DNA of 50,249 bases from Gemmatimonadales bacterium (GCA_050733035.1 JBOHSJ010000288.1:1-50249), one strand, 5' to 3'; numbered from the stretch's first letter, positions 3,901 to 34,323 are shown. A program made the numbers and translations. Notes: generated by a model from the sequence alone, not told the origin.

Positions 3901-4046
3901 CCATGTAGGCAGCGACGACCGTCGTGACCGATTGAATGGTCGAGCCGAACGACTGATAGAGGACGCGGACCCACAGCAGCTCGTAGATGAGCCCGGTGGC
4001 GCCCGAAAGAAAGAAGAGGAAGCTGTAAACGAGTGCCGGGGGGAGC

Positions 4047-4066
<20 letters not shown>
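923..4066 (-). CDS. Fused multi-TM membrane domain, spermidine-synthase-like (class I methyltransferase fold) domain and C-terminal TPR-like helical repeats
   Basis: 1047 aa. The N-terminus [19 protein letters not shown] plus many hydrophobic helices is typical of fused MFS/spermidine-synthase proteins. The central region has GQGTGVTT...VKVVEIEP...[11 protein letters not shown]. The tail is Ala/Leu-rich and repeat-like. The ORF-track start is GTG at 4066; ATG at 4057 is an alternative. Confidence 0.85.
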
Positions 4067-15603: not shown

Positions 15604-15922
15604 GAGCTTTCGCGAAGCGCAGCATGCGGTGGATCAATGGGTCGGCCAATTCGAGCAGGGCTACTTTGCGCCGCTCGCGAACGTGGCGCGCCTCGCCGAG
15701 GAAGTGGGCGAGCTGGCCCGCGAGGTGAATCACCAGTTCGGCCCAAAGCCGAAGAAGCCCGACGAAAAACCCGGCTCGATTTCCATGGAGCTGGCCGACA
15801 TCCTGTTCGTCGTGATCTGCATGGCCAACGAGCAGCACATCGACCTCGACGACGCGTTCGCACAGATGATGGTCAAGGTCACCGCCCGCGACGCCGGCCG
15901 CTGGACCAGGAAGGCTCGCTGA
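15602..15922 (+). CDS. MazG-like nucleotide pyrophosphohydrolase (small single-domain type)
   Basis: 106 aa. LARLAEEVGELAREV ... ELADILFVVICMAN is the EExxE/D helix pattern of MazG-type NTP pyrophosphohydrolases. Confidence 0.8.
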   Translation: MSFREAQHAVDQWVGQFEQGYFAPLANVARLAEEVGELAREVNHQFGPKPKKPDEKPGSISMELADILFVVICMANEQHIDLDDAFAQMMVKVTARDAGRWTRKAR

Positions 15923-16805
15923 CTTCCTCGTAGATCCGCGCGTACGACACCAGACGATCGGGATCGATCGCGCCCGGTGGTGCGCCGCGTATCGCGCATC
16001 CCGGCTCGGCAAGGTGGCGGCAGTTATCGAACCGGCATTGATCGAGATAGGGGCGGAATTCCGGAAAGCACGCACCCAATTCGTTGGGGTCGATGCCCCA
16101 GGCGCCGATTTCCCGGAGGCCGGGCGTATCCACGACGTAACCGACGCCGGCAACGGGCACCAGCTCCGCCGCGGTGGTGGTGTGCTTGCCGGTTCGCCAC
16201 TTCTCGCTGATCGCGCCGACCCGTAGCTTGAGCCCGGGCTCCAGCGCATTGAGCAGACTCGATTTTCCCGCGCCCGATGCGCCCGTAAACACCGAGTGCC
16301 GGCCGCGCAGCAAGTCGCGCAACGCGGGCAGCCCTTCGTCGGCCTTCACCGACGTCGCCAGCAGCTGATAGCCCGCGGTCTTGAAGCGGATCGCCAGCGC
16401 CTCCTCGGTCGTGCGGTCGAGCTCGATCTTGTTCAGGACCACCGCCGCCGGCAGCCCGTTCGCTTCCGCAATGACGAGGAACCGGTCGATCATCCGGGGG
16501 CTCGGCTCCGGATCACGCGCGGAAGTCACGACGATCACCTGATCCACGTTCGCCGCGACCGGCTGTGGACGCCGGGGCCCCGCTCCGCTGCTGCCCTGCG
16601 ACGCCCGCCGCGCGAGCACGGTCCGGCGCGGCCGGATCTCGGCGATCGTCGAGCCTTCGAGCACGACGACGTCGCCCGGAACGACACGGTCCTCGTCCTT
16701 GTGCTTGAGCTTGCCCCGCAGGGTGGCTGTGACTTCGCCGCTGTCGGTGTGGATGCGATAGCCACCGCCGACCCGCGCCAGCACGACGCCGTTCAGCAGC
16801 GTCAC
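15879..16805 (-). CDS. rsgA: Ribosome small-subunit-dependent GTPase A
   Basis: Circularly permuted GTPase motifs VLNKIEL, GASGAGKSSLLNAL and VDTPG, plus the C-terminal zinc knuckle C..F.DC.H..EPGCA. The start is set at GTG 16805, which forms a GTGA overlap with the upstream stop. The ORF-track start is 16832. Confidence 0.85.
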   Translation of the reverse strand: MTLLNGVVLARVGGGYRIHTDSGEVTATLRGKLKHKDEDRVVPGDVVVLEGSTIAEIRPRRTVLARRASQGSSGAGPRRPQPVAANVDQVIVVTSARDPEPSPRMIDRFLVIAEANGLPAAVVLNKIELDRTTEEALAIRFKTAGYQLLATSVKADEGLPALRDLLRGRHSVFTGASGAGKSSLLNALEPGLKLRVGAISEKWRTGKHTTTAAELVPVAGVGYVVDTPGLREIGAWGIDPNELGACFPEFRPYLDQCRFDNCRHLAEPGCAIRGAPPGAIDPDRLVSYARIYEEVSEPSWSSGRRRGR

Positions 16806-17107
16806 GCGCGCTGCCCCGCACGAGCTACGCACTGATCGAGATGCGCCTTCACCTGCTCGAGCGTCAGCGCCAGCACGGGCGCGAGCGCTTCATCCGGCGT
16901 GGGACCGAACGCGAGATAATCCGTCTCGAGGTGTCCGACGGGCTGCCCGTCACCCCAGCGCACGAACAACAGCGCGGCGCCGTACCGCCCCGGCTCGGCG
17001 GAATCGTCGCTGAAGGTCGCTACGGAGTACGCCTGCCCGTCCGGCGCGCCGAATGCGGGCGGGCGACCGTGTACGTGCTGGTAACCGCCTAACGTCGTGT
17101 CGTCCAT
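16802..17107 (-). CDS. Hypothetical protein (101 aa)
   Basis: ORF track. Its ATG overlaps the proline dehydrogenase TAA by 1 nt, and its TGA overlaps the rsgA GTG. Coding-like codon usage. No family recognised. Confidence 0.5.
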   Translation of the reverse strand: MDDTTLGGYQHVHGRPPAFGAPDGQAYSVATFSDDSAEPGRYGAALLFVRWGDGQPVGHLETDYLAFGPTPDEALAPVLALTLEQVKAHLDQCVARAGQRA

Positions 17108-18042
17108 TAGCGGCGGCGGTGCACCGACTCTTTGAGAATGTTCGTGGTGATGAACGCGATGTTCGCTGGACGCTCGGCGAGCCGGCGCATGAGGTACGGA
17201 TACCAGTGTGTACCGAACGGCACGTACACGCGCATGTTGTAGCCCTCGCGCCGCAACCGATACTGCAGATCGCGTCTCACCCCGTACAGCATCTGGAATT
17301 CGAATCGCTCGGCGGGAATGGCTTTTTTCTTGGCGAAGGCTTTGGCGTGGTCGATGATCTTTGCATCGTGCGTCGCAATCCCCGGGTAGTTACCTCGCTC
17401 GACCAGCCGCTCCATGCAGGCAACGTAGTTCGCGTCCACGTCGCGCTTGTCGGGAACGGCGACATCCTCGGGCTCTTTATACGCCCCTTTGCAGAGACGC
17501 ACGCGAGCTCCCAATCCGATCATGGCGTCCACGTCCGCCGCGGTCCTCCGCAGGTACGACTGCAGCACGACGCCGACGGTGTTGCCGAATTCAGGATAGA
17601 AAACATCGGTGAACAGCTGCAGCGTCTTCGCGGTATAGCTGGACTGCTCCATGTCGATGCGCACGAACGAGCCGTACTGCCTTGCCTTGCCGATGATCGC
17701 GCGCATGTTGCCGATGCACACTTGCTCGTCGATGTCGAGACCCATCTGCGTGAGCTTGACGGAGACGTTGGCATTGGCCTTGGCGGCGTGAATACGGTCG
17801 AGAACCTCGAGGTAGGTCTTGCACGCCCGCTGAGCCTCCTCGGCATGTAACACCGATTCCCCAAGCAGATCGAGCGACGCGGAGAGGTTACTGCCATTCA
17901 GGTCGCGGAGCGTCGTGATGGCTTCGTCCACGGTCTCGCCGGCGACGAAACGCGACGCGAGCTTCCTGGCCAGACGGTTCTTCCGAACGAAGCGGAAGAT
18001 GCGGGGCTGCTCGCTCAACCACAGGAATACGGCTTTCAGCAT
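17107..18042 (-). CDS. Proline dehydrogenase (monofunctional)
   Basis: 311 aa. FVAGETVDEAI...LDLLGE...QMLYGVR are motifs of the proline dehydrogenase family. Confidence 0.85.
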   Translation of the reverse strand: MLKAVFLWLSEQPRIFRFVRKNRLARKLASRFVAGETVDEAITTLRDLNGSNLSASLDLLGESVLHAEEAQRACKTYLEVLDRIHAAKANANVSVKLTQMGLDIDEQVCIGNMRAIIGKARQYGSFVRIDMEQSSYTAKTLQLFTDVFYPEFGNTVGVVLQSYLRRTAADVDAMIGLGARVRLCKGAYKEPEDVAVPDKRDVDANYVACMERLVERGNYPGIATHDAKIIDHAKAFAKKKAIPAERFEFQMLYGVRRDLQYRLRREGYNMRVYVPFGTHWYPYLMRRLAERPANIAFITTNILKESVHRRR

Positions 18043-20204
18043 CAGGCGTAGAACTTGGTCCCGCTGCGGGCCTGCTCCCGCAGCACCTCGCAGGGAGCGA
18101 AGCGCGCGCCATGGCGCTCCGCGAGGCGCTCGAGATCGGCAACCACGCGTTCGGCACCGAGGTCGTCGGCGTAGCGCAGCGGCCCGCCCCGGAACGGCGG
18201 AAAGCCGAATCCGAAAATCGCGCCGATGTCACCGTCGCGCGGGTTCTTGACGACGCCCTCTCCCACGGCGCGCGCCGCTTCGTTGACCATGCCCAGAATG
18301 AGGCGCTGCAGGATTTCGGAAGGCCGCGGTCCGCCATTCGGGTGGACGCCGAGGAGTCCGTACACACTCTCGTCCACGCCGCGTTTCTTGCCGCCTTTAT
18401 AGATGTAGAAGCCACGGCCCGATTTGCGGCCCAGGCGTCCCGCTTTGACGAGTGCCGCCAGCCCCTCACCCGGAGCCGGTTGGATGTGATCGCCGTAGGC
18501 CTCCTGCATCACGCCGGCGACCTTGATCGCGACGTCGAGGCCCACTTCGTCGAGCAGCGTCACCGGACCGACCGGAAAGCCGAACCGCACCGCCATGCTG
18601 TCGATCTCTTCGATGGACGCGCCTTCGCCGAGCAGATGGCCGACTTCGTTCGCGTACGGTGCGAGGATCCGGTTCACCCAGAAGCCCGGACTGTCTTGCA
18701 CGACGATCACCGTCTTGCCCATGCGCCGCCCGAATGCCACGGCCGTGCTCACCGTCTGAGGACTGGTGCGAGCGCCGGGAATCACCTCGAGCAGCGGCAT
18801 CTTGGCGACCGGTGAAAAGAAGTGCATGCCGATGACGCGCTCCGGGTCGTGCGCCGCTTCGGCGATGCGCGTGATCGGAATCGTGGACGTGTTGGACGCG
18901 AACACGCCGGAGGGCGGTATCACCACTTCGACTTCCCGCAGGACCTGCTGTTTGACCGTGAGATCTTCAAAGACCGCCTCGATCGTCAGCTCCGCGCGTC
19001 CGAACCCTGCATACGTGTCGCCACCGGACAAGAGCGCGACGAGCCGGGCGTACTCGTATTTTGTCATACGACGGCGCTTCAACCGGTCGTCGAGGATGGC
19101 GCGGGCGGCGAGGACGCCCTGGGCGACGCGCGCCAAGTCGGCGTCCTTCATGCGCACATCTACCTCCGCCTGCGCGACGGCGGTCCCCGCGATCCCCGAT
19201 CCCATGAATCCCGAGCCGATGATCCCCAGCCGCGTCGCGCGCACCGGCGGCGGGGCGTTGGGGACTCCGGGATCTTTCTTGAGCTGATTCGTCGCGAAGA
19301 AGATCTGCACGAGCTTGCGGGAGACGTCCGTCACCGCGAGCTGCCCGAACAGCTGAGCTTCGCGCTTCAATCCCTCGGGTATGCCGTGCTTCAGGCCGTA
19401 TTCGACCGCGTCGAGCGCCGCGAGCGGAGCCGGATAGTGCCCGCCCGTGCGCTCGAGCACCTGCTTGCGGGCTGCACGAAAGACGATGCCTCGCCCGATC
19501 GGATTGCCGTCGAGCAGAAACCCAACCAACCCACCGGGCCGCTTGCGTTTGGGGCGCCAGCCGCCGGCCATGCGGCGAGCGGCGGCGAGCGTGATATCCG
19601 CAAGGATGGGGGACGCGACCAGCTCGTCCACCATGCCAAGCCGGAACGCTTTGGCGGCGCGTTCGGTCTTGCCCGCGAGAATCATGTCGAGTGCCGCGCG
19701 AGCCCCCACGAGACGCGGCAGGCGTTGACAGCCGCCCGCCGCCGGGAGGATGCCGAGCTGCACTTCGGGGAGACCGATCTGGGTTTTGGGATGGTCCGTG
19801 GCGACGCGGTAATGGCAGGCCAGCGCGAATTCGAACCCACCGCCGAGACACGCGCCGTGGATCCCGACCGCGATCGGTTTGGGAAACCGCGCCACGCGGT
19901 CGAGCATCTCCTGGCCTGCTGCCGCCAGGCGCTCCGCTTCCGCCGCGGAGCCGAGCGTCACGAATTCCTCGATATCCGCGCCGGCGATGAAGTTGTCCGC
20001 CTTGCCGGACATGAACGCGACGGCGCGAACGCGCGCGTCATCCGCCAAGGCCGCGAAGCAGGCGATGAACTCGTCTTTGACGGCGCGCGAAATGACGTTG
20101 ACCGGCTGACCTTTGAGATCCAGAACGACGACGGCGATGCCGTCCGTGATGTCCCAGGTGACTGCGGGAGCGCTCCGCGACGGGGGAGGGGCGATGGTCG
20201 CCAC
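18042..20204 (-). CDS. fadJ: Fatty-acid oxidation complex alpha subunit (enoyl-CoA hydratase / 3-hydroxyacyl-CoA dehydrogenase)
   Basis: N-terminal crotonase fold (FIAGADI, HGACLGGGFEFALAC). NAD-binding IIGSGFMGSGIA and a C-terminal HCDH domain. The start is set at GTG 20204, overlapping the thiolase TAG by 1 nt. The ORF-track N-terminal 92 aa look like non-coding read-through. The gene order (thiolase first) is fadIJ-like. Confidence 0.85.
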   Translation of the reverse strand: MATIAPPPSRSAPAVTWDITDGIAVVVLDLKGQPVNVISRAVKDEFIACFAALADDARVRAVAFMSGKADNFIAGADIEEFVTLGSAAEAERLAAAGQEMLDRVARFPKPIAVGIHGACLGGGFEFALACHYRVATDHPKTQIGLPEVQLGILPAAGGCQRLPRLVGARAALDMILAGKTERAAKAFRLGMVDELVASPILADITLAAARRMAGGWRPKRKRPGGLVGFLLDGNPIGRGIVFRAARKQVLERTGGHYPAPLAALDAVEYGLKHGIPEGLKREAQLFGQLAVTDVSRKLVQIFFATNQLKKDPGVPNAPPPVRATRLGIIGSGFMGSGIAGTAVAQAEVDVRMKDADLARVAQGVLAARAILDDRLKRRRMTKYEYARLVALLSGGDTYAGFGRAELTIEAVFEDLTVKQQVLREVEVVIPPSGVFASNTSTIPITRIAEAAHDPERVIGMHFFSPVAKMPLLEVIPGARTSPQTVSTAVAFGRRMGKTVIVVQDSPGFWVNRILAPYANEVGHLLGEGASIEEIDSMAVRFGFPVGPVTLLDEVGLDVAIKVAGVMQEAYGDHIQPAPGEGLAALVKAGRLGRKSGRGFYIYKGGKKRGVDESVYGLLGVHPNGGPRPSEILQRLILGMVNEAARAVGEGVVKNPRDGDIGAIFGFGFPPFRGGPLRYADDLGAERVVADLERLAERHGARFAPCEVLREQARSGTKFYA

Positions 20205-21463
20205 TAACGCCGCTCCAGCACCATGGCGAATCCCATTCCGCCCTGCGCGCAGACGGAAATGAGTCCGAACTGGACGTCGCGGCGTCGCATCTCGTTGGAC
20301 AGGGTCGTGACGAGCCGGCCGCCCGTCGCGCCGAACGGATGGCCGATCGCAATCGAGCCGCCCATGACGTTGATGATGTCCTCGTTGATCTCCCAGCCGT
20401 TGGCGGCGAATCCCTGGAGATTCGACAGCACCTGGGCGGCGAAGGCCTCGTGCAGCTCGATCAGTCCGAGGTCCTTCCACTGAATGCCGGCGCGCTCGAG
20501 CGCCTTGGGGACGGCGAATATCGGGGCCTGCAGCAGCTGCCAGCCCGGATCGACGGCCGCAACGGCATATGAACGAATGAAGGTGAGCGGCTCATACCCG
20601 AGCGCCTGCGCGGCCTCCGCGCTCATGAGGAGCACGGCCGAGGCACCGTCAGTGAGGGGCGACGAGTTCGCGGCGGTCACGCTGCCGTAGCGCCGGTCGA
20701 ACACCGGCTTGAGCTTGGCCATCTGCTCGAGCGACGTGTCGCTGCGGATACCATTGTCCTGCTGCACGATCGGCCCGCCGGGGCGATCGGGCATCCAGGG
20801 CGCGATCTCGGCTGTGAGACGGCCGTCCGCGGTGCCCTGCGCCGCCAGCTTGTGGCTGCGCAGCGCCCAGCGGTCCTGCGCCTCGCGGGAGATGTGATTC
20901 TCCTTCGCCATCTTTTCCGCCGACTGGCCCATGGACTCGCCGGTAGACGGCTCTGCGATCGCCGGTGCCACCGGGATGAGGTCCTTGGGCCGGATCTTGG
21001 CGAACGTCTTGATGCGGGCGCCGAGCGATTTTGCCTTGCTCGCCTCGACCAGGATGTCGGCAAGCCGGCGCGAGGCGAGAATCGGAATATCGGACAGCGC
21101 CTCGGCACCTCCCGCCATGATCACCGCGGCGTTGCCAAGCGCGATCTGATCGTGGGCAGCGGTAATGGCCTGATTGGCAGAGGCGCACGCACGGTTCAGC
21201 GAGTAGGCCGGAATTTCCTTGGGGAGCTGCGGCAGGAGGCTGACTTCGCGCCCCACGTTCGGCACGAGCGCCGACGGCACCACCTGACCGAAGATGACCT
21301 CATCGATCTCGTTGCCGTCCAGATTGGTGCGCTCGATCAGCTCGCGGGCGGCGTAGCGCGCGAGATCCACGGCGCGCGCGTCTTTGAGCGACGTGCCCGC
21401 TTTGGTGAACGGCGTTCGGACGCCGGCGACGACTGCCACGCGCCGTCCGTTGAGACCCGGCAT
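20204..21463 (-). CDS. fadI: Acetyl-CoA C-acyltransferase (3-ketoacyl-CoA thiolase)
   Basis: Thiolase motifs NRACASANQAI and GGMGFAMVLE. The start is trimmed to ATG 21463 (MPGLNGRRVAVVAGVRTPF), preceded by GAGGGGAAG. Confidence 0.85.
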   Translation of the reverse strand: MPGLNGRRVAVVAGVRTPFTKAGTSLKDARAVDLARYAARELIERTNLDGNEIDEVIFGQVVPSALVPNVGREVSLLPQLPKEIPAYSLNRACASANQAITAAHDQIALGNAAVIMAGGAEALSDIPILASRRLADILVEASKAKSLGARIKTFAKIRPKDLIPVAPAIAEPSTGESMGQSAEKMAKENHISREAQDRWALRSHKLAAQGTADGRLTAEIAPWMPDRPGGPIVQQDNGIRSDTSLEQMAKLKPVFDRRYGSVTAANSSPLTDGASAVLLMSAEAAQALGYEPLTFIRSYAVAAVDPGWQLLQAPIFAVPKALERAGIQWKDLGLIELHEAFAAQVLSNLQGFAANGWEINEDIINVMGGSIAIGHPFGATGGRLVTTLSNEMRRRDVQFGLISVCAQGGMGFAMVLERR

Positions 21464-21554
21464 TAGATTCTTCCCCTCTTCTGGGAATCGAAACCTACCA
21501 CCGCCCCCAACCGGAGGGGAGTTGGAGCAAAACCGCGCCGCAGCCCTGGCATCC

Positions 21555-23153
21555 ATGACTGAAACGCCGGTGGATGTCCTCATTATCGGCGGCGGCATTA
21601 CGGGCGCGGGAATCGCGCGGGACGCGGCATTGCGGGGGTTCCGCACGGCGCTCGTGGACAAATCGGACTTCGGCGCGGGCACCTCGTCGCATTCGTCGCG
21701 ACTCATCCACGGCGGCGTCCGTTATCTGGAACAACGCGCATTCCGGCTGGTGTTCGAGGCGAGTCACGAGCGGCGTGTGCTCCTCAGGATCGCGCCGCAC
21801 CTCGTGCGGCCGCTCGCGTTCCTCTTCCCTGTCTACAAGGGCAGCCGCATTCCGGCATGGAAGCTGCGCGCGGGAATGTGGCTCTACGATCTCCTGGCGG
21901 CGTTCCGGAACGTGCGGCGGCACCGCTGGCTCCGCGCCAAGAAGGTCCGGCGGGTCGAGCCGGGGCTGCGCGATCGCGGGCTCATCGGCGCCGCGTTGTA
22001 CTACGACGCTCAGGTGGACGACGCACGCCTGGTCATCGCCACGATTCGCGCTGCCGCGCAGGCCGGCGCCCTGGTCGCTAATTACGTCGAGACGACCGAC
22101 GTCTTGAAGCCGGACGGACGGGTCCGCGGCGCGGCGATTCGCGACGTTCTCACGGGCGAGACCGCCACCATTCGCGCCAACGTGGTCGTCAACGCCACCG
22201 GCCCATGGTCCGACACCGTGCGCCGGCTCGACGATCCCAGCGCCGAACCGCTGCTGCGGCCCACCAAGGGCGCGCACGTCGTCGTACCGCGGCGGCGCAT
22301 GTCGAACGAGCATGCCGTGACGCTGCTCTCGCAGCTCGACGGCCGTGTGATGTTCGTGCTGCCGTGGGGCGAGCTGTCGTACATCGGCACGACCGATACG
22401 GACGCCGACTCATCTCCCGATGCCATGCGCGTGACCGCGTCCGACGTCACCTATCTCCTTCGTTCCGTGAATGCCGCATTTCCCGGCGCTCACCTGACCA
22501 CCAACGACGTCGTCTCCGCCTGGTCCGGGCTGCGTCCGTTGCTGCGACAGGATCATGCCAACCCGTCGCAGGTGTCGCGCGAGCATCGCATCGTCGAGAG
22601 TGCGCACGGACTCGTCACGATCATCGGCGGGAAGCTGACCACGTACCGGGTGATGGCGCGCGACGTGGTGGATCGCGTCGCGGCGCGACTACACGAGCTC
22701 GATGGCCGGCCGCTCGCGCAACGCCCGCCGACGGATCGTATCCCGCTGCCCGGCGGCGAGGCGGCCGAGCTGGAGGTGCTGATCGAGGCGGCACGGGCGC
22801 GGGGCGCCGCGGAAGCGACGGCGCGTCATCTCGTCGCGAGCTACGGCAGCGAGGCGGCGGCGGTGCTGAATCTCGTCGATCGGGAGCGGCCGCTGGGCGA
22901 CCCGATCATCGCGGGGCGGCCGGAGATCTGGGCGGAAGTCAGCTATGCCGTCGAGCGGGAAATGGCGGTGCGCGTGCAGGACGTTCTGATCCGGCGCCTG
23001 CACCTGTTCTACGAGGCACGCGAGCAGGCGCACTCGATCGTGGGTACCGTGGCGAGCCGGATGAAAAAGCTCCTCGGCTGGGACGACACCCGTGAGGCCG
23101 AGGAGCTCCGTGACTACTTTCAGATCGTCGAGCGGAGCCGGATCAAGGTTTGA
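21555..23153 (+). CDS. glpD: FAD-dependent glycerol-3-phosphate dehydrogenase
   Basis: The start is trimmed to ATG 21555, giving VDVLIIGGGITGAGIARDAALRG (FAD dinucleotide fold). Also SSRLIHGGVRYLE, and a C-terminal alpha-helical GlpD-type domain. Confidence 0.85.
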   Translation: MTETPVDVLIIGGGITGAGIARDAALRGFRTALVDKSDFGAGTSSHSSRLIHGGVRYLEQRAFRLVFEASHERRVLLRIAPHLVRPLAFLFPVYKGSRIPAWKLRAGMWLYDLLAAFRNVRRHRWLRAKKVRRVEPGLRDRGLIGAALYYDAQVDDARLVIATIRAAAQAGALVANYVETTDVLKPDGRVRGAAIRDVLTGETATIRANVVVNATGPWSDTVRRLDDPSAEPLLRPTKGAHVVVPRRRMSNEHAVTLLSQLDGRVMFVLPWGELSYIGTTDTDADSSPDAMRVTASDVTYLLRSVNAAFPGAHLTTNDVVSAWSGLRPLLRQDHANPSQVSREHRIVESAHGLVTIIGGKLTTYRVMARDVVDRVAARLHELDGRPLAQRPPTDRIPLPGGEAAELEVLIEAARARGAAEATARHLVASYGSEAAAVLNLVDRERPLGDPIIAGRPEIWAEVSYAVEREMAVRVQDVLIRRLHLFYEAREQAHSIVGTVASRMKKLLGWDDTREAEELRDYFQIVERSRIKV

Positions 23154-25330: not shown

Positions 25331-26008
25331 ATGTTCGAGTTCAAGGACGTTACCACTCCGCGCCGCGGCTTTCTGGGCACTCTCGCGGCCGCCGCGGCTG
25401 CGGGTTTTGCCAGCCTGACGCCGCTGCGCCTCGAAGCCAAGACGCGCAGCAGCGGTTCGGCCAACGGGATGGACGCGGCGTTCGAGACGTGGCTGAACCG
25501 GATCAACGGGAAGCACAAGATGGTGTTCGACGCGCCCGAGGTGAACAGCGGCATGCCGGTGATTTGGCCGCGCGTCTGGCTCGTCGGCAACAACGAGAAC
25601 TACGGCACGAAGGACACGGACAACTCGGGCGTCGTGATTCTGCGCCACGCGGCGATTCCGCTCGCGATGAAAGACGATCTGTGGGCGAAGTACAAGCTCG
25701 GCGAAGCGTTCAGCATCAAGGAGGGCGAGACCGCGGCGACGCGTAACATTTTCGCCAAGGTGCTGCCGTTGCCCCTGCCCGGCACGGGCGTCGAGGCGTT
25801 GCTCGCAAGCGGCGTGCAGTTCGGCGTGTGCAACGTCGCACTGACGATCTACAGCGGCATGGTGGCGCAGAAGATGGGAGTGGACGGCGCGGCGGTGAAA
25901 GCCGATTGGGTCGCGGGACTGATTCCCGGATGTCAGGTCGTGCCGTCCGGCGTGCTCGCAGTGTCGCGCACACAGGAGAAGGGCTGCGGCTACTGCTTCG
26001 CGGGTTAG
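25331..26008 (+). CDS. Tat-exported protein of unknown function, tentatively DsrE/DsrF-like fold
   Basis: ATG 25331 is preceded by GAGGAGG. Twin-arginine signal TPRRGFLGTLAAAAAAGFA. The pattern KHKMVFDAPE...VVILRHAAIPL...GVQFGVCNVAL is reminiscent of DsrE-like proteins. C-terminal CGYCFAG. No haem or Fe-S motif. Confidence 0.65.
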   Translation: MFEFKDVTTPRRGFLGTLAAAAAAGFASLTPLRLEAKTRSSGSANGMDAAFETWLNRINGKHKMVFDAPEVNSGMPVIWPRVWLVGNNENYGTKDTDNSGVVILRHAAIPLAMKDDLWAKYKLGEAFSIKEGETAATRNIFAKVLPLPLPGTGVEALLASGVQFGVCNVALTIYSGMVAQKMGVDGAAVKADWVAGLIPGCQVVPSGVLAVSRTQEKGCGYCFAG

Positions 26009-26121
26009 TCCCTCGCCGTGTGACTTGAGTCACCGGCACCGCGGTCGTGTGATGGAACCTCACGAACCTTGGCTCGGTCCTCCGGGTACAGCGTCACGCA
26101 CTACAACCGGAGGATCGAACC

Positions 26122-26562
26122 ATGATTCGACGCATCCTGATGGCAGTCGCGCTGCTGGTGTGCGCGGCCGGCGTCACGCGTGCCGCAGCGCAGCGGTCGC
26201 ATTTCGGACTGCACGGCGGCTACAACTTCGATCTCGAAGAGGGCTCGATCGGAGCCCAGATGCATCTGCCGCTCACGTCGTCGATCGAGCTCTATCCGTC
26301 GTTCGACTATTACTTCGTGAACAGCGGGACCCTGCTGGGTTTCAACGGAGATCTCAAGTTCCGCACGCCGGGTACGCCGCTGTACTTCGGCGGCGGCGTC
26401 GGCATTCTGAGCGGGGGCGGGAACTCCAACACGGGGTTCAACCTGTTTGGGGGGGTTGAGACACGCTACGGCCAGACGCATCCCTTCATCGAGGGGCGCG
26501 CGTTATTCCACGACGGCTCGGCGTTTCAGTTGTTGTTTGGCCTCAACGTGACGCTGTACTAA
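26122..26562 (+). CDS. Small outer-membrane beta-barrel protein (OmpW/OmpX-size)
   Basis: 146 aa. Signal peptide MIRRILMAVALLVCAAGVTRAAAQ. Alternating Gly/aromatic beta-strand pattern. C-terminal aromatic residue (NVTLY). Confidence 0.7.
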   Translation: MIRRILMAVALLVCAAGVTRAAAQRSHFGLHGGYNFDLEEGSIGAQMHLPLTSSIELYPSFDYYFVNSGTLLGFNGDLKFRTPGTPLYFGGGVGILSGGGNSNTGFNLFGGVETRYGQTHPFIEGRALFHDGSAFQLLFGLNVTLY

Positions 26563-26590
26563 CTGCGAGGTTGTGAAGGATGGTGATGCG

Positions 26591-26618
26591 GTAGGGGCGC
26601 AGCATGCCGCGCCCCTAC
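26591..26618. terminator. GC-rich hairpin between convergent genes (candidate bidirectional terminator)
   Basis: GTAGGGGCGC (26591-26600) and GCGCCCCTAC (26609-26618) are exact reverse complements with an 8-nt loop. The hairpin overlaps the stop codon of the minus-strand gene. The T tract on the plus strand is only short. Confidence 0.4.
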
Positions 26619-27607
26619 TTCCACCCTCGCAGACTTCGCACGAAATCGTGCAGCACCAGAAACTTCTCGTACAGCCGCACACCCTTTCGCTTGCGGCCGA
26701 ACTCGGCGAACAGCTCCCGCAGCCGCCCGCGGCGCGCGACGTAGAACCGGAACGTCTCCGCGAAGTCTTCCTGCGGGTGCGTCGCCGCGTAGGCGCTGAC
26801 GTAGTCGGTCAGCGTCGTCGCGATGCGGCGGCGCTCGAAGTCCACCCAGTGCTCGTCCGCGACGCGGTACGCCTTGCGCACTTCGCCGAACGCGCGGCGG
26901 AACCGGCCGCTGCGGGTCCACGACCAGTGATGATAGAGGAAGGAGTGGCCGAGCTCATGGAGCAGCAGGCCCGTCAGCATGTTCCAGGAGATTTCGTCGC
27001 GGCGCCGCTTGCCGGTGACGTAGCGGCGGTCGAGCTCGATGACCTTGGGAGCGCGTGGCGCGACCCCCGAGACCCCCGGTCGCAGGGCAACGCGATAATG
27101 CCAGTCGCGAATCCGCGAGACGATCAGCAGCCGGCGCGCCCGCCGCAGCGCCCGTGGGATGAGGTCGCGCCCGGTCGCATCCTCGCCGCACCAGGGGCAC
27201 GTCGCCATCCAGTCGTCCACGCCCCTATCGCAATGTGGGCAGGAATTCTGGAAGTGATCGTAGCGCCACGTCTGTGTGCGGCCGCACCAGGGACAGAAGC
27301 GCATCGGATACATCACACCGCCGCCGCATCCCCAATCGCAGCGCGCGTGGAACTTGAATCCCTTCGGCGCCTTCAGCGGCTCTTCGCTCGAATCCTTGTC
27401 ATGGACGTTCCGGCCGCACCACGGGCAGAACGACGACGCGTCCGAGACGATCCAGCCGCAGTACGCGCATTCCGCCCCCGTCTCGCGCAGCGTGTCGGGC
27501 CACTCGAGCCGCCGGCTGCAGCTGGGGCAGTAGCTCCAGAACCGCTCCAGCTCCGTGTGGCAGCGGGGGCAGCGCAGCTCGGGCGTCGGAACCTCGCGGC
27601 GGCTCAC
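26615..27607 (-). CDS. Four tandem zinc ribbons fused to a putative HExxH zinc metallopeptidase domain
   Basis: 330 aa, GTG start. CxxC pairs at residues 13/16+27/30, 47/50+61/64, 90/94+105/108 and 123/126+137/140; three of the pairs use CPWCG. HELGH at 217-221 and a downstream QEDFAE at 279-284. Confidence 0.75.
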   Translation of the reverse strand: MSRREVPTPELRCPRCHTELERFWSYCPSCSRRLEWPDTLRETGAECAYCGWIVSDASSFCPWCGRNVHDKDSSEEPLKAPKGFKFHARCDWGCGGGVMYPMRFCPWCGRTQTWRYDHFQNSCPHCDRGVDDWMATCPWCGEDATGRDLIPRALRRARRLLIVSRIRDWHYRVALRPGVSGVAPRAPKVIELDRRYVTGKRRRDEISWNMLTGLLLHELGHSFLYHHWSWTRSGRFRRAFGEVRKAYRVADEHWVDFERRRIATTLTDYVSAYAATHPQEDFAETFRFYVARRGRLRELFAEFGRKRKGVRLYEKFLVLHDFVRSLRGWK

Positions 27608-28602
27608 CGGGCCATCGCCTCGTCCACGATGCGTTGTATGAACGCGTTGTATTTGAGCCCAGACTTGGCGGCAGCCTCCGCCAATTCATGCTCGTCCGCG
27701 ATGAACGGGTTGGGGTTTACCTCGAGCACGTACACCTCGTCGTCATGCGCCAAGCGCACATCAACGCGGCCGTAATCCTGGAGCCACAGCGCGTGAAACG
27801 CGGTCGTACAGATCTCGCCGATCCGGCGCGTCAACTCCTCGGACACACCCTTGGCGAATACGTTCTTGATCTTTTTCTTTTTCCGGTAGTCCTCGTCCCA
27901 CTTCGCCTTGTAGGTCGCGATGCGATGCTCGCCGGTCTCCGGTTCGCCGAACGTCATCTCCGTGAGCGGTAGCACCTCCAAATCGTCGTTGCCGATCAGC
28001 CCGACGTATACCTCGCGCCCTTCCACCAGCTCCTCGACGATCGCTGCCTGGTGGTACTTGGTGTGAATGAACTCGGCGCGCTGCTTCAGGCTCGCGTCGT
28101 CCTCGACCACCGATGCCTGCGCAATGCCGATGGACGCGTCCTCGAGCAGTGGCTTCACGATGAGGGGAAAGCGGAGCTCCGACGGCCGCACCAGCTCGTC
28201 GCCCTCGTGGAACTCGGCGAACGCCGGCACGCGGATGTTGTGAAAGGCAAGGACTTTCTTGGTCAACGATTTGTTGCGGGCCACCAGCAGGGCGGTGGGC
28301 GAGGAACCGGTGTAGCGATAGCCGTACATGTCCAGCAGCGCGGCGATCGCGTATTCGTGGCGCGCGTTCTTGCGGAAGCCCTCGCAACCGTTGAACACGA
28401 GCTTCGGCTGGAAGTCGGCCAGTTTCGCGAGGAGCGGCGGGACGTCGTCGCCGATGCCGATCATGAGCACGTCGTGGCCACCTCCCATGAGGGCGCGCGC
28501 GACGTCGTATTCCGCTTCCTCGGCCTTCTGCTCGACCTCGCGCTTGAAGGCGGCGTCCTCCCATTCAGGATGGAGCGAATCGAAGATCACGGCGATCTTC
28601 AT
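27604..28602 (-). CDS. ATP-grasp ligase, D-alanine--D-alanine ligase family-like
   Basis: The start is trimmed to ATG 28602 (MKIAVIFDS...). Motifs ARNKSLTKKVL, FPLIVKPLLEDASIGI, EELVEGREVYVG and VLEVNPNP. The long ORF-track N-terminal extension lies in an alternative frame of the MFS gene. Confidence 0.85.
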   Translation of the reverse strand: MKIAVIFDSLHPEWEDAAFKREVEQKAEEAEYDVARALMGGGHDVLMIGIGDDVPPLLAKLADFQPKLVFNGCEGFRKNARHEYAIAALLDMYGYRYTGSSPTALLVARNKSLTKKVLAFHNIRVPAFAEFHEGDELVRPSELRFPLIVKPLLEDASIGIAQASVVEDDASLKQRAEFIHTKYHQAAIVEELVEGREVYVGLIGNDDLEVLPLTEMTFGEPETGEHRIATYKAKWDEDYRKKKKIKNVFAKGVSEELTRRIGEICTTAFHALWLQDYGRVDVRLAHDDEVYVLEVNPNPFIADEHELAEAAAKSGLKYNAFIQRIVDEAMAR

Positions 28603-30155
28603 GTGGGCACCCCCACGCGCGCCATGTCGCGGGAAACAGTCTTCAGCGCAATGAGGATGACGAGCCCGCCCAGCAGACCCACCGCCGGAAGCACCAGCAT
28701 CGCCGTCCGCAGACTCCCGGTGCGGTCGGACAAATAGCCGATCAGCGGCGGTGCGAGGGCGTCGCCGGCGAGATGCGAGAAGAGCACAAACGCGCCGAGC
28801 ACGGACGCTTGCACGGCCGCCGGCACAACGTCGAGAATCACCGCGGCGAGCGGCCCGCTGTACCACGTGTACAGGAAGTACGTCGCCATGATCAGCGGGC
28901 CAAACCAGCGCAGGTCTTCCACGAGCAGCAGGGCGGCGCACGTCGGAGCACCCAGCACAAAGCCCGCGCCCGAGACGAGGACGCGCCCGCCGCGCCAGCG
29001 CTGCTGGAGGCGGTCCGCGAGCCGGCCACCCACCAGCGCACCGACCACGCCCCCGCTCAGCGCCCACATGCCGAACTCGGCTCCCACCCGCGCTATCGAC
29101 AGGCCGTGCATCCGCTGCATGAATGCGGCCGCCCAGGCGACCAGTCCGTTCACCCCGAACGTCACCATCGCCCCGCCCAGGAATACCCAGATCAGCGTCG
29201 GCGTCCGGAGCACGAGCGCGGCGGCGTCCTGAAAGTCGTCGAATGCGCCCGCGGCAACCGCACCGGCCGCGGTGGTCCGCCGCACCGCGAGCGGCACGAG
29301 CCGCCATACCGTCCAGGCGACGCCCACGGTGACACCGACGCCGAAGACGGCCGTACCGAATTGCGAAGGAATCCCCTCGAACATCGCCAGCAGCCCCGCG
29401 AGCAGCGCCCCGACGCCCGCACAGATCGCCAACGGCATCACATAGTGCGTCACGCCGTGCATGCCGTGCCGCCACCATTGCTGTAGCGTCTCAACGATCG
29501 GCGGTGGCGGCCGGCGATCGAGCTCGCGCAGCCGCGATGCGAGCAAGGCGAGCACGAGTCCCGGGAATCCCATCCAGATGAAGGCCCAGCGCCAGCCGTA
29601 CCGCTCCGCAATCACACCGCCGAACCAGATGCCCAGCACGCCACCCAGTGCCATCCCGACCGAGTAGATACCGATCGCAAACGCGCGGCGCCGGCCCTTG
29701 AAATACTGCGCGATGATCGCCTGTGAAGCGGGCCCGTAGCCCGCCTCCCCGAACCCCACGAGCGCGCGGCACGCGAACAGCTGCCAGAAGTGCCGGACGA
29801 AGCCTCCAGCCACGGTCGCGGCGCTCCACACTGTCACGCCCCAGGTGATGACCGTGCGCCGCGAGCGCAGATCGCCGATGACGCCCAGCGGCAACGCGGC
29901 AAGCGAGAGCACGATGATGTACGCGGAACCGAGCCACCCGAGCTGCGCATCCGAGACCTGGAGATCGCGTTTGACGGGCTCGAAGACGGCGTAAACGACG
30001 TTGCGGTCGAGATAGTTGAGAAGATTGACCAGCGTCAGGAGCGCCAGGACGTAAACGGCATACGCCCTGGTCGGAGTAGCGGACTTCCCTGTGTCAGGTT
30101 GCGCGGCCGCCAGTTGCTGCCTCGGCGCGTGCGTCCCGGTCCGCCTTCGCCTCAA
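28599..30155 (-). CDS. MFS transporter (Spinster-like type)
   Basis: 518 aa with 12-plus hydrophobic helices. LNYLDRNV...GDLRSRR...GFGEAGYGP motifs. The TTG start at 30155 lies 62 nt inside the upstream gene, so the true start is uncertain. Confidence 0.8.
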
Positions 30156-31230
30156 GATACGAATCCGTCAACTCGCGCATCAGGTCGGCACGCTTGTCGT
30201 ACAGGCGCCTCAGCGTACGGGGTTTGCGCCGGGCCAGCGCATACGCGGCCAGAATCGGGAAGGCCACGGTGTTGTCGAGATACGCCACGACTGTGCCGGG
30301 CAGCTTGTCCGGATCGACCTTCCCCCAGCTCACGGCCTCCGACGGCGTCGCGCCGGAAAGGCCGCCGGTGTCGGGCCGGGCATCCGTGAGTTGGAGATAG
30401 TAGTCGTGGCCCTTTTCGCTGATCCCCAGCACTTCCTGGATCTGCGGCTCGGTTTGCAGCACGAAATTCTTCGGGCTGCCGCCGCCGATGATCAGGACAC
30501 CGCTCTTGCCGCCGCTCACTTTCGCCGAGAAGACGATGGACGACGTCTCATTCACGTCGGCGCTGACGTCGAACCGCAATTTGCTCCCCGAGAGCGCCTG
30601 CTCGGCCACGTTCATCCCGATCGAGGAGTCGCCCGGCGACGACGTGTAGATCGGGACCGCCGCGGCGTGCGCGGCACCCAGCACCGATTTGCGTGAGAGA
30701 CCGAGCGCTTTTTCCCGCTCCAGCACGTAGCCACCGAGCAGATAGTGGTACTCCGCCGTACTCATGGGCCGCTGGAATTCTTCGCGGGCGGAGACTTCGC
30801 GCACGAAGCGATCGGTGGACAGCAGCACGTCGTAATCGAAGAAGATGTCATAGATCCGCACGACGCCTTCCTCGCGCAGCACGATGTCGTCCGCGAACGG
30901 CGTGCCGCGGTGCATCGCCATGCCCAATCCGAAGTGGGCGTCGTGGTAAAGATTTGCGCCGGTCGAGACCATCCAGTCGATGAACCCCGCCTCGATGAGC
31001 GGAATGATCGTGGACATGCCCAACCCCGCCGGCGTCATCGCACCGGTGAGACTCATCCCCACGGTCACGTCGTCTTCGAGCATCCGCTCGGCAAAGAGCC
31101 GGCATCCTTCACCAAGGCGGCCGGCGTTGTACGCGAGGAAGGCGTTATCGACGAGATCGGCGACCGTCTCTTTCCCGCTGACCGGTTGGGGATTGATGCG
31201 CTGTCCGCGCAGGAATTCGTTTTGCGTCAT
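30094..31230 (-). CDS. Deoxyhypusine synthase family protein (bacterial DHS-like / homospermidine-synthase-like)
   Basis: 378 aa. STGANLYHD and [10 protein letters not shown]. The catalytic-lysine block [10 protein letters not shown] matches the DEAVSWGK motif of deoxyhypusine synthases. Confidence 0.85.
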
Positions 31231-32003
31231 CGGGTGGCCTGGGCGATTTGGCTCATCGCGCGGTAGGCGCGGGTGCGGCGCTCGCGAGCCTCCATGATCC
31301 AGCCGAGGGCTTCCTTCGGTTCGTCCGTCACCAGGAACAGGTTCAAGTCTTCAGGCGAGATCTTTCCCTCGCCGGCAACCCGCTCCTTGAGCCACTCGGC
31401 GAGCCCGTTCCAGTACTTGCGGCCGAAGAGGACGACGGGGAACTGCTTCACCTTGCCCGTCTGTACGAGGGTCAGCGCCTCGAACAGCTCGTCCATCGTG
31501 CCGTAGCCTCCGGGGAAGGTGATGAAGGCGGTCGAATACTTCACGAACATCGTCTTGCGCACGAAGAAGTAGCGGAAATTGATGGAGCGCTCCACCCACT
31601 GGTTCGTACCCTGCTCGAAGGGCAGCTCGATATTGCAGCCGATCGACAGGCCGCCGCCCTCCTTGGCGCCGCGGTTCGCCGCTTCCATGATACCGGGGCC
31701 GCCGCCGGTGATGATCGCGAATCCCTCCTTCGCGAGCATCCGCGAGGTCTCGCGCGCGGCGGCGTAGTAGGGATCGCTTTCCGGCGTGCGCGCCGAGCCG
31801 AAGACCGTCACTGCGTTGCGTACGTCGGACAACGTATCGAACCCTTCCACGAACTCTCCCATGATGCGCAGCACGCGCCACGGATCGGTGCTCGTGAAAG
31901 AGGCCCGCCGCTCCATCGGTACGACTTGCGGCGGGATGAGGAGTTGCTCGTCCTCAGTGAGCGGGCTGCGAGGCGAGGCGCTCGGTTGCTCTGACATGGT
32001 CAT
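31227..32003 (-). CDS. LOG family (TIGR00730-type Rossmann fold) protein, historically mis-annotated as lysine decarboxylase
   Basis: 258 aa. [22 protein letters not shown] and [12 protein letters not shown] motifs. Confidence 0.85.
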
Positions 32004-33120
32004 CCTGCGTGTTATAGAAGAAGGGCGAGAACCGGACGTGCCCCGGCCGCGTATCGGCGATGACGCCGCCCGCCGCCAGGTGCCGCACGCTCGCCGCGGG
32101 ATCCGGCATGGGAATCATAACGATCGCTGAGCGTTGTTTCGGGTCGGGCTCGACCGTCGGCTTGAAGCCGGCCGCGCGCGCCGTCGCGATGAGGTCCTCC
32201 GTCAGCGCGGCGGTCACGTCGCGAATGGCGGGAACCCCGATCTCCTCGATGTATTCGAGACCGCCGAGCTGGGCGTACACCGCGGCGAGGGACGGCGTGC
32301 CGAGCTCGAACCGCCGCGCGTCATCGTGGAACGTCAGCGCGCGCGGGTCGAACGCGAACTGATCGCGCTGCCCGAACCAGCCCGAGATCTTCGGCTCGAG
32401 CCGGCGCGCGACCGCTTCACGGACGTACAGGAAGACAATCCCCGGGCCGCCGAGCAGCCACTTGAGGCCCCCGGCCACGAGCGCGTCGACCCCGGCATCC
32501 TGCACGTCAACGGGAATCTGGCCGACCGACTGGTACGCGTCGATCAAGCACAGCGCACCGTGCGCGTGCGCGGCCTCGGTCACGCGCTTGATGTCCTGAA
32601 TGGCCCCGCTCGTGAAGTACACGTGCGACGTCACGACGAGCGCCGTGCGATCGTCCACGGCACGCGCGATCGCCGCGACGGGCACAGTGATCCGGTCCGG
32701 ACTCTCCACGACGACGAGCTCGACGCCCTGCCTCGCTTTCGCGAGCCACTGATAGGCGACGGTCGGGAAATCGAGCGACGTGATGACGACTTTGGGACGG
32801 CGAGCGTAGTCGATCGACTCCGCCACCGCGCTGAGCGCGACGGAGATGCTCGGCGCGAGCGCGATGTCATTGGGCGCCGCGTTCACGATGCGTCCATAGC
32901 GCGCGCGCAGGTGCGTGAGCGCTTCCCACCACACGTCGTACCAGGCGGATGCGCCGCGACGCTGCCAGATATCGAGGAATTCGGCTACCTTGCGGCGAGA
33001 CCGCTCGCCCAGCGCTCCCAGCGAGCAGGTATTGAGGTAGACGCTCTCCTTGAAGATGGGGAACTCGCCGCGATATCTGGCGAGCCCGAGCGCGCGCGGT
33101 GTTGCGCTTGCGAGCGTCAT
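31954..33120 (-). CDS. Aminotransferase class V-fold PLP-dependent enzyme
   Basis: The start is trimmed to ATG 33120. YLNTCSLG, LIDAYQSVG and the candidate PLP-lysine region VAGGLKWLLGGPG. Confidence 0.8.
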   Translation of the reverse strand: MTLASATPRALGLARYRGEFPIFKESVYLNTCSLGALGERSRRKVAEFLDIWQRRGASAWYDVWWEALTHLRARYGRIVNAAPNDIALAPSISVALSAVAESIDYARRPKVVITSLDFPTVAYQWLAKARQGVELVVVESPDRITVPVAAIARAVDDRTALVVTSHVYFTSGAIQDIKRVTEAAHAHGALCLIDAYQSVGQIPVDVQDAGVDALVAGGLKWLLGGPGIVFLYVREAVARRLEPKISGWFGQRDQFAFDPRALTFHDDARRFELGTPSLAAVYAQLGGLEYIEEIGVPAIRDVTAALTEDLIATARAAGFKPTVEPDPKQRSAIVMIPMPDPAASVRHLAAGGVIADTRPGHVRFSPFFYNTQDDHVRATERLASQPAH

Positions 33121-33142
33121 AGGCCGGGAATATACAGAAGGA

Positions 33143-33409
33143 ATGCAGCGTATCGCGAGTTGGTCCGCATTGTATTTGCGATTAGCACTCAAGGCGCTGG
33201 TGCGTCCGCGACTCGCCGTCGATTTGTTGCGGCTCGCGTGGAGCTTCCGCGCCCGAGACTGGTACCGGCGGCCGCCGTTTCTGCCGCTTCCCCCGCGCGA
33301 CTACATGCAATGGCGCATGTTCACCGCCTACGGGGACGAGCAGACGATCCCGCCGGTGGACGACGTCGCCAACTTCGCGCGCTGGCGGCGCGAAACGATG
33401 GGACTATGA
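33143..33409 (+). CDS. Small hypothetical protein (88 aa)
   Basis: ATG 33143 is preceded by AGAAGGA. Its stop forms an ATGA overlap with the queG start. Coding-like codon usage. No family recognised. Confidence 0.5.
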   Translation: MQRIASWSALYLRLALKALVRPRLAVDLLRLAWSFRARDWYRRPPFLPLPPRDYMQWRMFTAYGDEQTIPPVDDVANFARWRRETMGL

Positions 33410-34323
33410 TCGAGATCAAGCGCCGCGCCACAGCGCTCGGCTTCTCGGCCACCGGCATCGCGCGGCTCGATCGCAACCCACACGCGACCGAGCTCGACCG
33501 CTGGCTCGCGGACGGGCACGCGGGCACGATGACGTACCTGAATCGCCAGGCGGAGAAGCGGAAGGATCCGCGCAAGATCATGCCGGGCGCGAAGTCAGCA
33601 GTGGTTACGCTCACGAACTACTTCCACGGGTGGGGTGCCCCGGGGCCTGGCCCCGGGGCTCACGACCCTGGACGAGTCGCTCAATACGCCTGGTCGCCCG
33701 ACTACCACGAGGTCCTCGGCACACGCCTCGCGCAGCTCGCCACCACAATCCGTGAACTGATCCCCGGCTCGACGACGCGCTGCTACGTCGATGCGGGACC
33801 CGTCCCGGAGCGCGAGCTCGCGCAGCTCGCGGGACTCGGATGGATCGGCAAGAACATGATGCTGATTCATCCCGAGATCGGATCGTTCACCTTCATCGGT
33901 GTCATCCTGACCGATGCGGACCTGGCTCCAGACCTGCCGTTCGAAGCGGATCGTTGCGGCACGTGCACTCGCTGCCTCGACGCGTGCCCCACGCACGCGT
34001 TCGACGGACCGCGCGATCTCGACGCGCGCGCGTGCATCTCGTATCTCACGATCGAACATCCCGGCGAGTTTACGGCGCAACAACGCGGGTACGTCGGCGA
34101 GTGGGTGTTCGGGTGCGACGTGTGCCAGGACGTGTGTCCCTGGAATGTCAGCTTCGCCCGGGAAACGGCCGATGCTGGCTTCGCCGTGCGCCCGGAGGTG
34201 GCAGCGCCCGACGTCCGTGCGCTCGCGACGATGGAGGAGGCCGAGTTCCAGCGGCGCTACGGTGATACGCCATTCACGCGGCCGGGCCTGAAGGGGATGC
34301 GTCGCAATGCCGTCCTCGGCTGA
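33406..34323 (+). CDS. queG: Epoxyqueuosine reductase
   Basis: The start is ATG 33406, inside the long ORF-track frame. Motifs MTYLNR, CGTCTRCLDACPT, CISYLTIE and GCDVCQDVCPWN (4Fe-4S clusters). Confidence 0.85.
   Translation: MIEIKRRATALGFSATGIARLDRNPHATELDRWLADGHAGTMTYLNRQAEKRKDPRKIMPGAKSAVVTLTNYFHGWGAPGPGPGAHDPGRVAQYAWSPDYHEVLGTRLAQLATTIRELIPGSTTRCYVDAGPVPERELAQLAGLGWIGKNMMLIHPEIGSFTFIGVILTDADLAPDLPFEADRCGTCTRCLDACPTHAFDGPRDLDARACISYLTIEHPGEFTAQQRGYVGEWVFGCDVCQDVCPWNVSFARETADAGFAVRPEVAAPDVRALATMEEAEFQRRYGDTPFTRPGLKGMRRNAVLG

Follow-up and report, generated by a model that had tools for sequence, protein, structure and literature searches.

Bacterial homologues of deoxyhypusine synthase (DHS) characterised as SpeY or CdmS couple two agmatine molecules to give N1,N9-bis(guanidino)homospermidine, which a ureohydrolase afterwards changes into homospermidine (PMC13625781, PMC10981699), and the diverse SpeY homologues assayed to date all yield a bis-guanidino polyamine (PMC13625781). 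In the published clusters, speY is accompanied by genes for arginine decarboxylase and agmatinase, or by AIH/NCPAH (PMC13625781). Here we analyse a locus in which the neighbours of speY are instead a LOG-family gene, a gene for a class-V-fold pyridoxal 5′-phosphate (PLP) enzyme and a gene for a major facilitator superfamily (MFS) transporter, followed by genes for an ATP-grasp protein resembling D-Ala-D-Ala ligase (Ddl) and for a peptidase with four zinc ribbons. The six genes lie on the minus strand at positions 26615-33120 of a 50,249-nt stretch of DNA from a soil Gemmatimonadales bacterium (GCA_050733035.1 JBOHSJ010000288.1:1-50249), the whole of which is referred to as the window. A preliminary description of this DNA had recognised the six genes, and its gene identities were confirmed by the open reading frames (ORFs), Pfam and NCBIfam; the motifs it had read, including EAVSWGK, EVNPNP and HELGH...QEDFAE, are all present.

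We consider it probable that the locus is a clade-specific composite operon, made up of a homospermidine-type speY block and a separate ligase-peptidase cassette. The upstream half would be the homospermidine-related block, with speY, the type-II LOG, the class-V PLP enzyme and the MFS transporter. The downstream half would be an autonomous two-gene cassette, inherited throughout the Gemmatimonadota, in which a Ddl-like amide ligase would be translationally coupled to a zinc-ribbon peptidase whose catalytic domain is presumably of the HExxH...Y...E type found in anthrax lethal factor (LF), PPEP and MtfA.

About 170 loci carrying peptidase homologues were compared, originating from 80 species-level genomes, 80 metagenome contigs and, for 15 loci, targeted look-ups of peptidase or ATP-grasp homologues. 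The metagenome contigs came from a scan seeded with a remote homologue, P0295, which returned no closer relatives of P0295; its 80 loci served instead to sample the Gemmatimonadota family and, being ranked on P0295, are not biased toward the window. The carriers of P0295 itself (L086/L087) were excluded from the counts, and SpeY was scored as linked when encoded no more than 4 kb upstream at the locus. SpeY was found upstream in 86/86 loci whose peptidase is at least 75% identical to that of the window, whereas it was found in 1/21 loci below 75% identity, that is, it was missing from 20 of the 21 more distant loci. The ATP-grasp gene lies immediately upstream of the peptidase gene in 94/106 loci at or above the same identity and in 34/38 below it. 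In a neighbour-joining tree of the peptidases the SpeY-linked loci form one clade, indicating that the linkage arose once. This clade also retains flanks that are unrelated to the six genes, namely queG and an 88-amino-acid ORF, and a basal member, L092, keeps the whole mnmG-parAB...glpD-thiolase-proDH-rsgA backbone of the window. The preliminary description had held that ligase, hydrolase and transporter are hard-wired to the DHS-like enzyme, and had named lack of conservation of the neighbourhood beyond close relatives among the results that would refute its idea. That conservation is largely lacking: the six-gene neighbourhood is limited to one clade, the cassette occurs elsewhere mostly without SpeY, and the idea of a hard-wired pathway comes down to one juxtaposition within a syntenic backbone.

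Furthermore, the sequences show no re-tooling of the cassette on joining speY. In the ATP-grasp protein, 71 positions are at least 95% conserved both in the SpeY clade (n=99) and in the other clades (n=36), with no clade-specific switch (0 positions); in the peptidase, 104 positions are conserved at this level in both groups and the one switch falls at a non-catalytic site, so that no clade-specific change of an active site was seen. Gene content within the clade was examined as well. All six genes are kept in 52/61 species-level genome loci, and most metagenome loci of the clade likewise retain the arrangement. In 6/61 genome loci there is no ATP-grasp gene, and the MFS gene then abuts the peptidase gene; among clade loci whose upstream flank extends for 1.1 kb or more this state was counted in 11/106, to which L092 adds a further loss of the ligase gene. 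The MFS gene is missing from the locus in L035, L114, L171 and L092, the block of the last consisting of LOG, SpeY and peptidase only, and the PLP gene is missing from L092, L052 and L082. Within the clade, the ATP-grasp and MFS genes drop out independently, while SpeY and the peptidase stay. The peptidases of loci without the ATP-grasp gene are full length with intact catalytic motifs, which argues that the peptidase is not strictly dependent on a ligase encoded in cis. There have been at least three independent losses of the ATP-grasp gene at the locus (L039-L048, L077, L136 and L138; L092; L116, L106 and relatives). The cassette is independent of speY in evolution and, to judge by its sequence, in function as well.

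Some observations weigh against such a division of the locus. Within the clade the block is uninterrupted down to identities of 62% (MFS, ATP-grasp) to 77% (SpeY), over a range in which the downstream flanks have changed, and the peptidase gene still adjoins the SpeY block after deletion of the ATP-grasp and/or MFS genes (L039-L048, L077, L136, L138, L092). The retained adjacency of peptidase and speY could reflect selection for co-expression with speY, and stand-alone cassettes may be functionally linked in trans to a SpeY encoded elsewhere.

Outside the SpeY clade the two cassette genes keep each other's company. Each major branch of the peptidase tree (L001, L002, L084/L091, L085, L088/89, L090/L174/L175, L093 and the window clade) has them side by side, with overlaps of 1-26 nt in most cases and amid genes that are unrelated from branch to branch, and the cassette stands alone in L085, L088, L093 and L002. 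Identities of 57-97% were seen among the peptidases of the phylum. When 1.84 billion cluster representatives were scanned with HMMER, the result was essentially one full-length 50%-identity cluster beyond that of the query (from Palauibacterales, 59% identical), together with two remote full-length relatives at 27-30% identity from low-GC organisms. The locus of P0295 (L086/L087), the readable one of these two, has no ATP-grasp neighbour; in L086 (2129-10987) P0295, which is 30% identical and has four ribbons and HExxH, is encoded downstream of three dynamin-like GTPase genes. On the ligase side, the named homologues at 56% identity or more are almost all from Gemmatimonadota, one being labelled Armatimonadota, and a protein search started from a Palauibacterales ATP-grasp protein likewise returned Gemmatimonadota almost exclusively, with no informative partner outside the phylum. 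Two database proteins in which an ATP-grasp C-terminus seems to be fused to the peptidase (P0256 and P0262) contain frameshift-like low-complexity stretches and were set aside, as they are probably artefacts of assembly and not true fusions. By these searches the cassette is in practice limited to the Gemmatimonadota; it has no characterised member and is itself previously undescribed.

The first cassette gene (27604..28602, minus strand) encodes a protein of 332 amino acids that matches Pfam Dala_Dala_lig_C (3e-28) and, from its sequence, belongs to the ATP-grasp superfamily. The motif LIVKP...EVNPNP is present, and across 135 orthologues the Mg-ATP residues K150, E190, D281, E294 and N296 reach a conservation of at least 95%. 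Its closest solved and curated relatives are Ddl and VanA, with which it shares the ATP-grasp fold and the Mg/ATP residues. Identity as a D-Ala-D-Ala ligase was nevertheless rejected: the protein stays under all Ddl cut-offs, the best score (126.6 bits) being about half of the 243 required (NF002378), PFIADEHE stands in the place of PGMTDHSL, the segment of the D-Ala pocket, and the GGxSxE segment of the N-terminus is missing. The residues concerned (Ser and Leu of PGMT..HSL and the N-terminal Glu) are those that we take to bind D-Ala in E. coli DdlB. The ligase further differs from Ddl and VanA in a longer, basic omega-loop (AKWDEDYRKKKKIKN) and in having a cytoplasmic zincin, rather than a cell-wall gene cluster, as its partner. 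A RimK domain match is marginal (1e-3, under cut-off). RimK, LysX and other ATP-grasp ligases of peptide tails offer a parallel, in that an ATP-grasp ligase works on a protein C-terminus, LysW being a zinc-ribbon partner protein, and a very basic partner would suit acidic tails. Unlike in the RimK/LysW systems, however, the C-terminus of the window peptidase is not acidic and carries no carrier-type EDWGE tail.

The product of the second cassette gene (26615..27607, minus strand), predicted to be cytoplasmic, begins with four zinc ribbons of the Cys4 type (residues 13-140), to which a Peptidase_Mx gluzincin domain (residues ~150-330) is fused. Its Pfam matches are DZR and Peptidase_Mx (PF15887), the latter with 49.2 bits against 27 required, and it shows the motif HELGH...QEDFAE. 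In 43 sequences, including relatives of only 27-29% identity, H217, E218, H221, Y273 and E280 are invariant, as are 15 of the 16 ribbon cysteines, C13 being at least 90% conserved. An AlphaFold2 model built from 14 close sequences was useless (predicted local distance difference test, pLDDT, 40); adding the 27-29% identical relatives rescued it (pLDDT 87.9, predicted template-modelling score 0.81). Foldseek matched the catalytic half of this model best to anthrax lethal factor and to PPEP-1/3 (probability 0.99, E 0.012, TM-scores 0.24-0.38), suggesting that the domain has an LF/PPEP-like, endopeptidase-type zincin fold. With LF and PPEP-1/3 (M34) and MtfA (M90) the modelled protein would share a minimal gluzincin fold; it has HExxH and, seven residues ahead of the Glu ligand, a Tyr (Y273/E280), a spacing that LF, PPEP-1 and MtfA presumably have in common. 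It differs from them in its identity of 14-19%, its low TM-scores, its Pfam family (Peptidase_Mx, neither M34 nor M90), its four N-terminal zinc ribbons, its cytoplasmic location and its coupling at the gene level to an ATP-grasp ligase. A PDB sequence search with the peptidase gave no match, PADLOC gave no defence-system match for the cassette, and literature searches on Peptidase_Mx/PF15887, on an ATP-grasp protein with a zinc-ribbon metallopeptidase, on homospermidine in Gemmatimonas and on bacterial DNA-protein-crosslink proteases found nothing on this family.

If the locus is composite, the job of the cassette here would most likely be the same as in genomes in which it has no polyamine neighbours. 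At low resolution, this would be the ATP-dependent formation of a peptide or amide bond together with the zinc-dependent cleavage of one. The catalytic half of the peptidase has an isoelectric point (pI) of 11.4 and a net charge of +22, which suggests a fit with anionic substrates or nucleic acid and a poor fit with polycations such as polyamines, and the ligase is acidic (pI 5.2 in the window, median pI 5.4 among ligases). Because a probable LF/PPEP-like fold and a catalytic half of +22 stand alongside an acidic ligase, an anionic peptide or protein, or a substrate associated with nucleic acid, would be more likely than a polyamine.

In the upstream half, the product of speY (30094..31230, minus strand; 378 amino acids; Pfam DS 2e-67) passes the NCBIfam equivalog for homospermidine biosynthesis proteins (NF001980; 545.9 bits against a cut-off of 450), and all DHS models failed, the best reaching 229 bits against 434 required. 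Its catalytic-lysine block, EAVSWGK, aligns with that of the archaeal DHS 7cmc and conforms to E-x-V-S-W-G-K. The DS fold, this block and the equivalog pass are shared with the SpeY/CdmS proteins TTHA1570 of T. thermophilus and SpeY of Anabaena. The preliminary description was right to see a polyamine enzyme here; its spermidine-using DHS gives way to an enzyme of the SpeY type (NF001980; PMC13625781). By analogy with the assayed family members, SpeY would couple two agmatines to N1,N9-bis(guanidino)homospermidine, from which a ureohydrolase encoded elsewhere would release homospermidine; no homologue of arginine decarboxylase or of agmatinase/ureohydrolase is encoded in the window.

The neighbour of speY at 31227..32003 (minus strand; 258 amino acids, with the ATG at 31997 as a possible alternative start) encodes a type-II LOG-family phosphoribohydrolase (TIGR00730; 152.2 bits against 96.35). 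Both signature motifs, PGGxGTxxE (here PGGYGTMDE) and GGGxGxM, were found, and the protein matches solved type-II LOGs in the PDB (5zi9 at 9e-79, 5wq3 and 1wek). From its similarity to the proteins of C. glutamicum, P. aeruginosa and T. thermophilus (TT1465), at E 1e-66 to 1e-79, it appears to be an ordinary type-II LOG, whose sole distinctive trait is a conserved 50-nt overlap with the upstream PLP gene. The latter (31954..33120, minus strand) encodes a kynureninase/SufS-like protein of 388 amino acids (Pfam Aminotran_5 3e-36), which falls under every NCBIfam equivalog cut-off (107 bits against 246 required for the kynureninase model) and has the kynureninase of P. fluorescens (1qz9, 1e-31) as its nearest solved relative. 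PADLOC matches of this protein to SspA/DndA were dismissed as generic desulfurase similarity. The MFS transporter (28599..30155, minus strand; 518 amino acids; Pfam MFS_1 7e-51), the gene of which has a TTG start inside speY, matches best to TIGR00893, a model of the anion:cation symporter group, with 150 bits against 395 required; its top curated matches, all far under cut-off, are organic-anion symporters rather than polyamine exporters.

The least unlikely of the alternatives to a composite operon connects the cassette with DNA damage, the protease clearing DNA-protein adducts or spent repair proteins, the ATP-grasp protein acting as an accessory tagger, and the position of speY being incidental or loosely related. 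In one clade, comprising 13 loci, the peptidase gene lies between fpg (equivalog passed) and a gene for a Cho-like nuclease of 360-371 amino acids resembling the N-terminal half of UvrC, the three genes being co-directional and closely spaced; the ATP-grasp gene is present in L084, L091, L098, L111 and L118 and absent from seven loci (L106, L116, L129, L132, L141, L172, L173), and L096 shares the fpg context. In another clade ogt, encoding O6-alkylguanine-DNA alkyltransferase, directly follows the peptidase gene in five loci (L090, L145, L164, L174, L175), with a 4-nt overlap in L174, whereas the upstream genes vary between loci. The very basic catalytic half would also suit such a role, and a zincin combined with zinc ribbons recalls the SprT/Wss1/SPRTN class of proteases. 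However, each repair association is a single event in a syntenic backbone, a weakness that it shares with speY, and most clades are without repair neighbours. Moreover, no SprT-like domain was found among the Pfam matches of the peptidase, and Foldseek gave no significant match to either Wss1 or SPRTN (probability 0.09-0.23). We treat the repair neighbourhoods of these two clades as a lead, not as a finding.

Next in order, and in our view improbable, comes a single pathway in which SpeY makes a polyamine that the ATP-grasp enzyme joins to a peptide or an amino acid, with export of the conjugate by the MFS protein and its recycling by the zinc peptidase, in the manner of glutathionylspermidine synthetase/amidase (GspSA). 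The five gap-free junctions, the retention of the full arrangement in most loci of the clade and the persistence of the peptidase beside speY once intervening genes are lost are all in keeping with this model. So is an unrelated lineage, L001, where a transporter and an amidohydrolase occur in one run with the cassette: at 8964-14820 of L001, from a genome of 4.59 Mb, the cassette runs with hardly a gap into genes for an AMP-binding (acyl-CoA-ligase-like) protein, an APC-family amino-acid permease and an Amidohydro_2 protein. Against the model stand the single origin and narrow distribution of the linkage, the unchanged cassette sequence, the individual dispensability of the ATP-grasp and MFS genes at the locus, the charge of an endopeptidase-type zincin that would have to accept a polycation, the kinship of the transporter with organic-anion symporters and the lack of an arginine decarboxylase or ureohydrolase in the window. 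The model resembles GspSA in concept only, as an ATP-dependent amide ligase paired with a hydrolase for a polyamine conjugate: GspSA combines GSP_synth with a CHAP amidase, neither of which gave a Pfam match (E up to 0.01) in any of the six proteins, and the window has a Ddl-like protein with a zincin, a pairing that is independent of polyamine genes.

Placed a little lower again, as a speculative and rather improbable extension of the repair contexts, is a Gemmatimonadota-wide role of the cassette in genome-maintenance protein processing. Removal of DNA-bound or spent repair proteins would fall to the basic zincin with its zinc ribbons, and the ATP-grasp enzyme would have the task of adding or restoring a peptide tag; joining the speY operon in this clade would couple the cassette to the supply of a DNA-binding polyamine. 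Fpg, like Ogt, is a covalent or suicide enzyme.

A hypusine-like modification, in which a lysine of some protein would receive an aminobutyl or agmatinyl group from the DHS homologue, processing of that protein being the work of ligase and peptidase, is very hard to sustain: the catalytic lysine block is conserved and the peptidase looks protein-directed, but SpeY passes the small-molecule homospermidine equivalog (546 bits) and no DHS model (best 229 against 434), its assayed homologues all make the bis-guanidino polyamine (PMC13625781), and the cassette is independent of SpeY.

Returning to the composite operon, the six ORFs all lie in the high-GC3 frame (GC at third codon positions 0.83-0.88), and their start codons were inferred from sequence. 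The five overlapping junctions of the preliminary description could be read directly. The PLP gene ends with a stop at 31954-31956 and the LOG gene begins with the ATG at 32003 or 31997, giving an overlap of 50 or 44 nt; LOG and speY share an ATGA at 31227-31230; the sole usable MFS start is the TTG at 30155, 62 nt within the DHS gene, as an alternative 81 codons further in frame would cost the first transmembrane helix; MFS and ATP-grasp genes share an ATGA at 28599-28602, and ATP-grasp and peptidase genes a GTGA at 27604-27607. This layout is operon-like, as previously proposed, and the six genes are probably co-transcribed. Tight packing as such is no more than the background of this genome: among co-directional neighbours (longest ORFs) in the window, 14/24 pairs overlap, including unrelated ones such as M23 peptidase/ParB, RsgA/.../ProDH and a membrane spermidine-synthase-like protein/E1 dehydrogenase. 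Since overlaps are the norm here, packing alone says little about shared function.

The closing GC-rich hairpin is also present, as a perfect 9-bp stem at 26592-26617 (TAGGGGCGC-GGCATGCT-GCGCCCCTA; no strand assigned) that covers the TAG stop of the peptidase gene and lies between convergent genes; it has no T-run and was not called by a terminator scan. A promoter scan of 26000-34000, which is uninformative for this phylum, returned no sigma-70-like site, and an Rfam scan of the window no riboswitch or RNA family. At the other end, the conserved 88-amino-acid ORF (33143-33409, plus strand; no Pfam family) abuts the start of the PLP gene head-to-head, with an overlap of about 22 nt, so that no intergenic stretch is left in which a promoter of the six genes could lie. 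This ORF is present in 64 related loci and is joined to queG via an ATGA overlap.

The window is chromosomal DNA of 62-70% GC per 2-kb windows, mostly about 67%, and is origin-proximal, with mnmG and parAB at 46-50 kb. The backbone common to the window and L092 comprises mnmG, parA, parB, M23, MFS and queG ... glpD-like, thiolase, proDH, rsgA, mazG-like and DUF1015 genes. Lineage-specific insertions between the two lie at 15602-18042 and 20204-23153, with ECF sigma/CBM48, S9, M20, MBL and HEAT/cytochrome c genes in the window. The gene at 923-4066 (minus strand) encodes a membrane protein of 1047 amino acids with an MFS-like N-terminal region and a spermidine-synthase-like domain (Pfam 3.5e-10) and overlaps the adjacent E1 dehydrogenase gene by 20 nt. 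It lies 22 kb from the six-gene cluster, and none of the tests made here ties it to the cluster.

Were the one-pathway model true, it would define a new class of polyamine conjugate. What the evidence favours instead is a speY block of the ordinary kind with an unstudied cassette attached to it, and the locus illustrates that a lack of gaps between genes is, in a compact high-GC genome, a weak argument for a shared pathway. Of the two parts it is the cassette that merits attention, being a strongly conserved pair found almost only in the Gemmatimonadota, an abundant but poorly studied soil phylum, and including a peptidase whose architecture has no solved or characterised relative. Once known, the substrate of the cassette would give a function to hundreds of proteins that now carry the misleading annotations 'D-Ala-D-Ala ligase' and 'putative zinc-binding metallopeptidase'.

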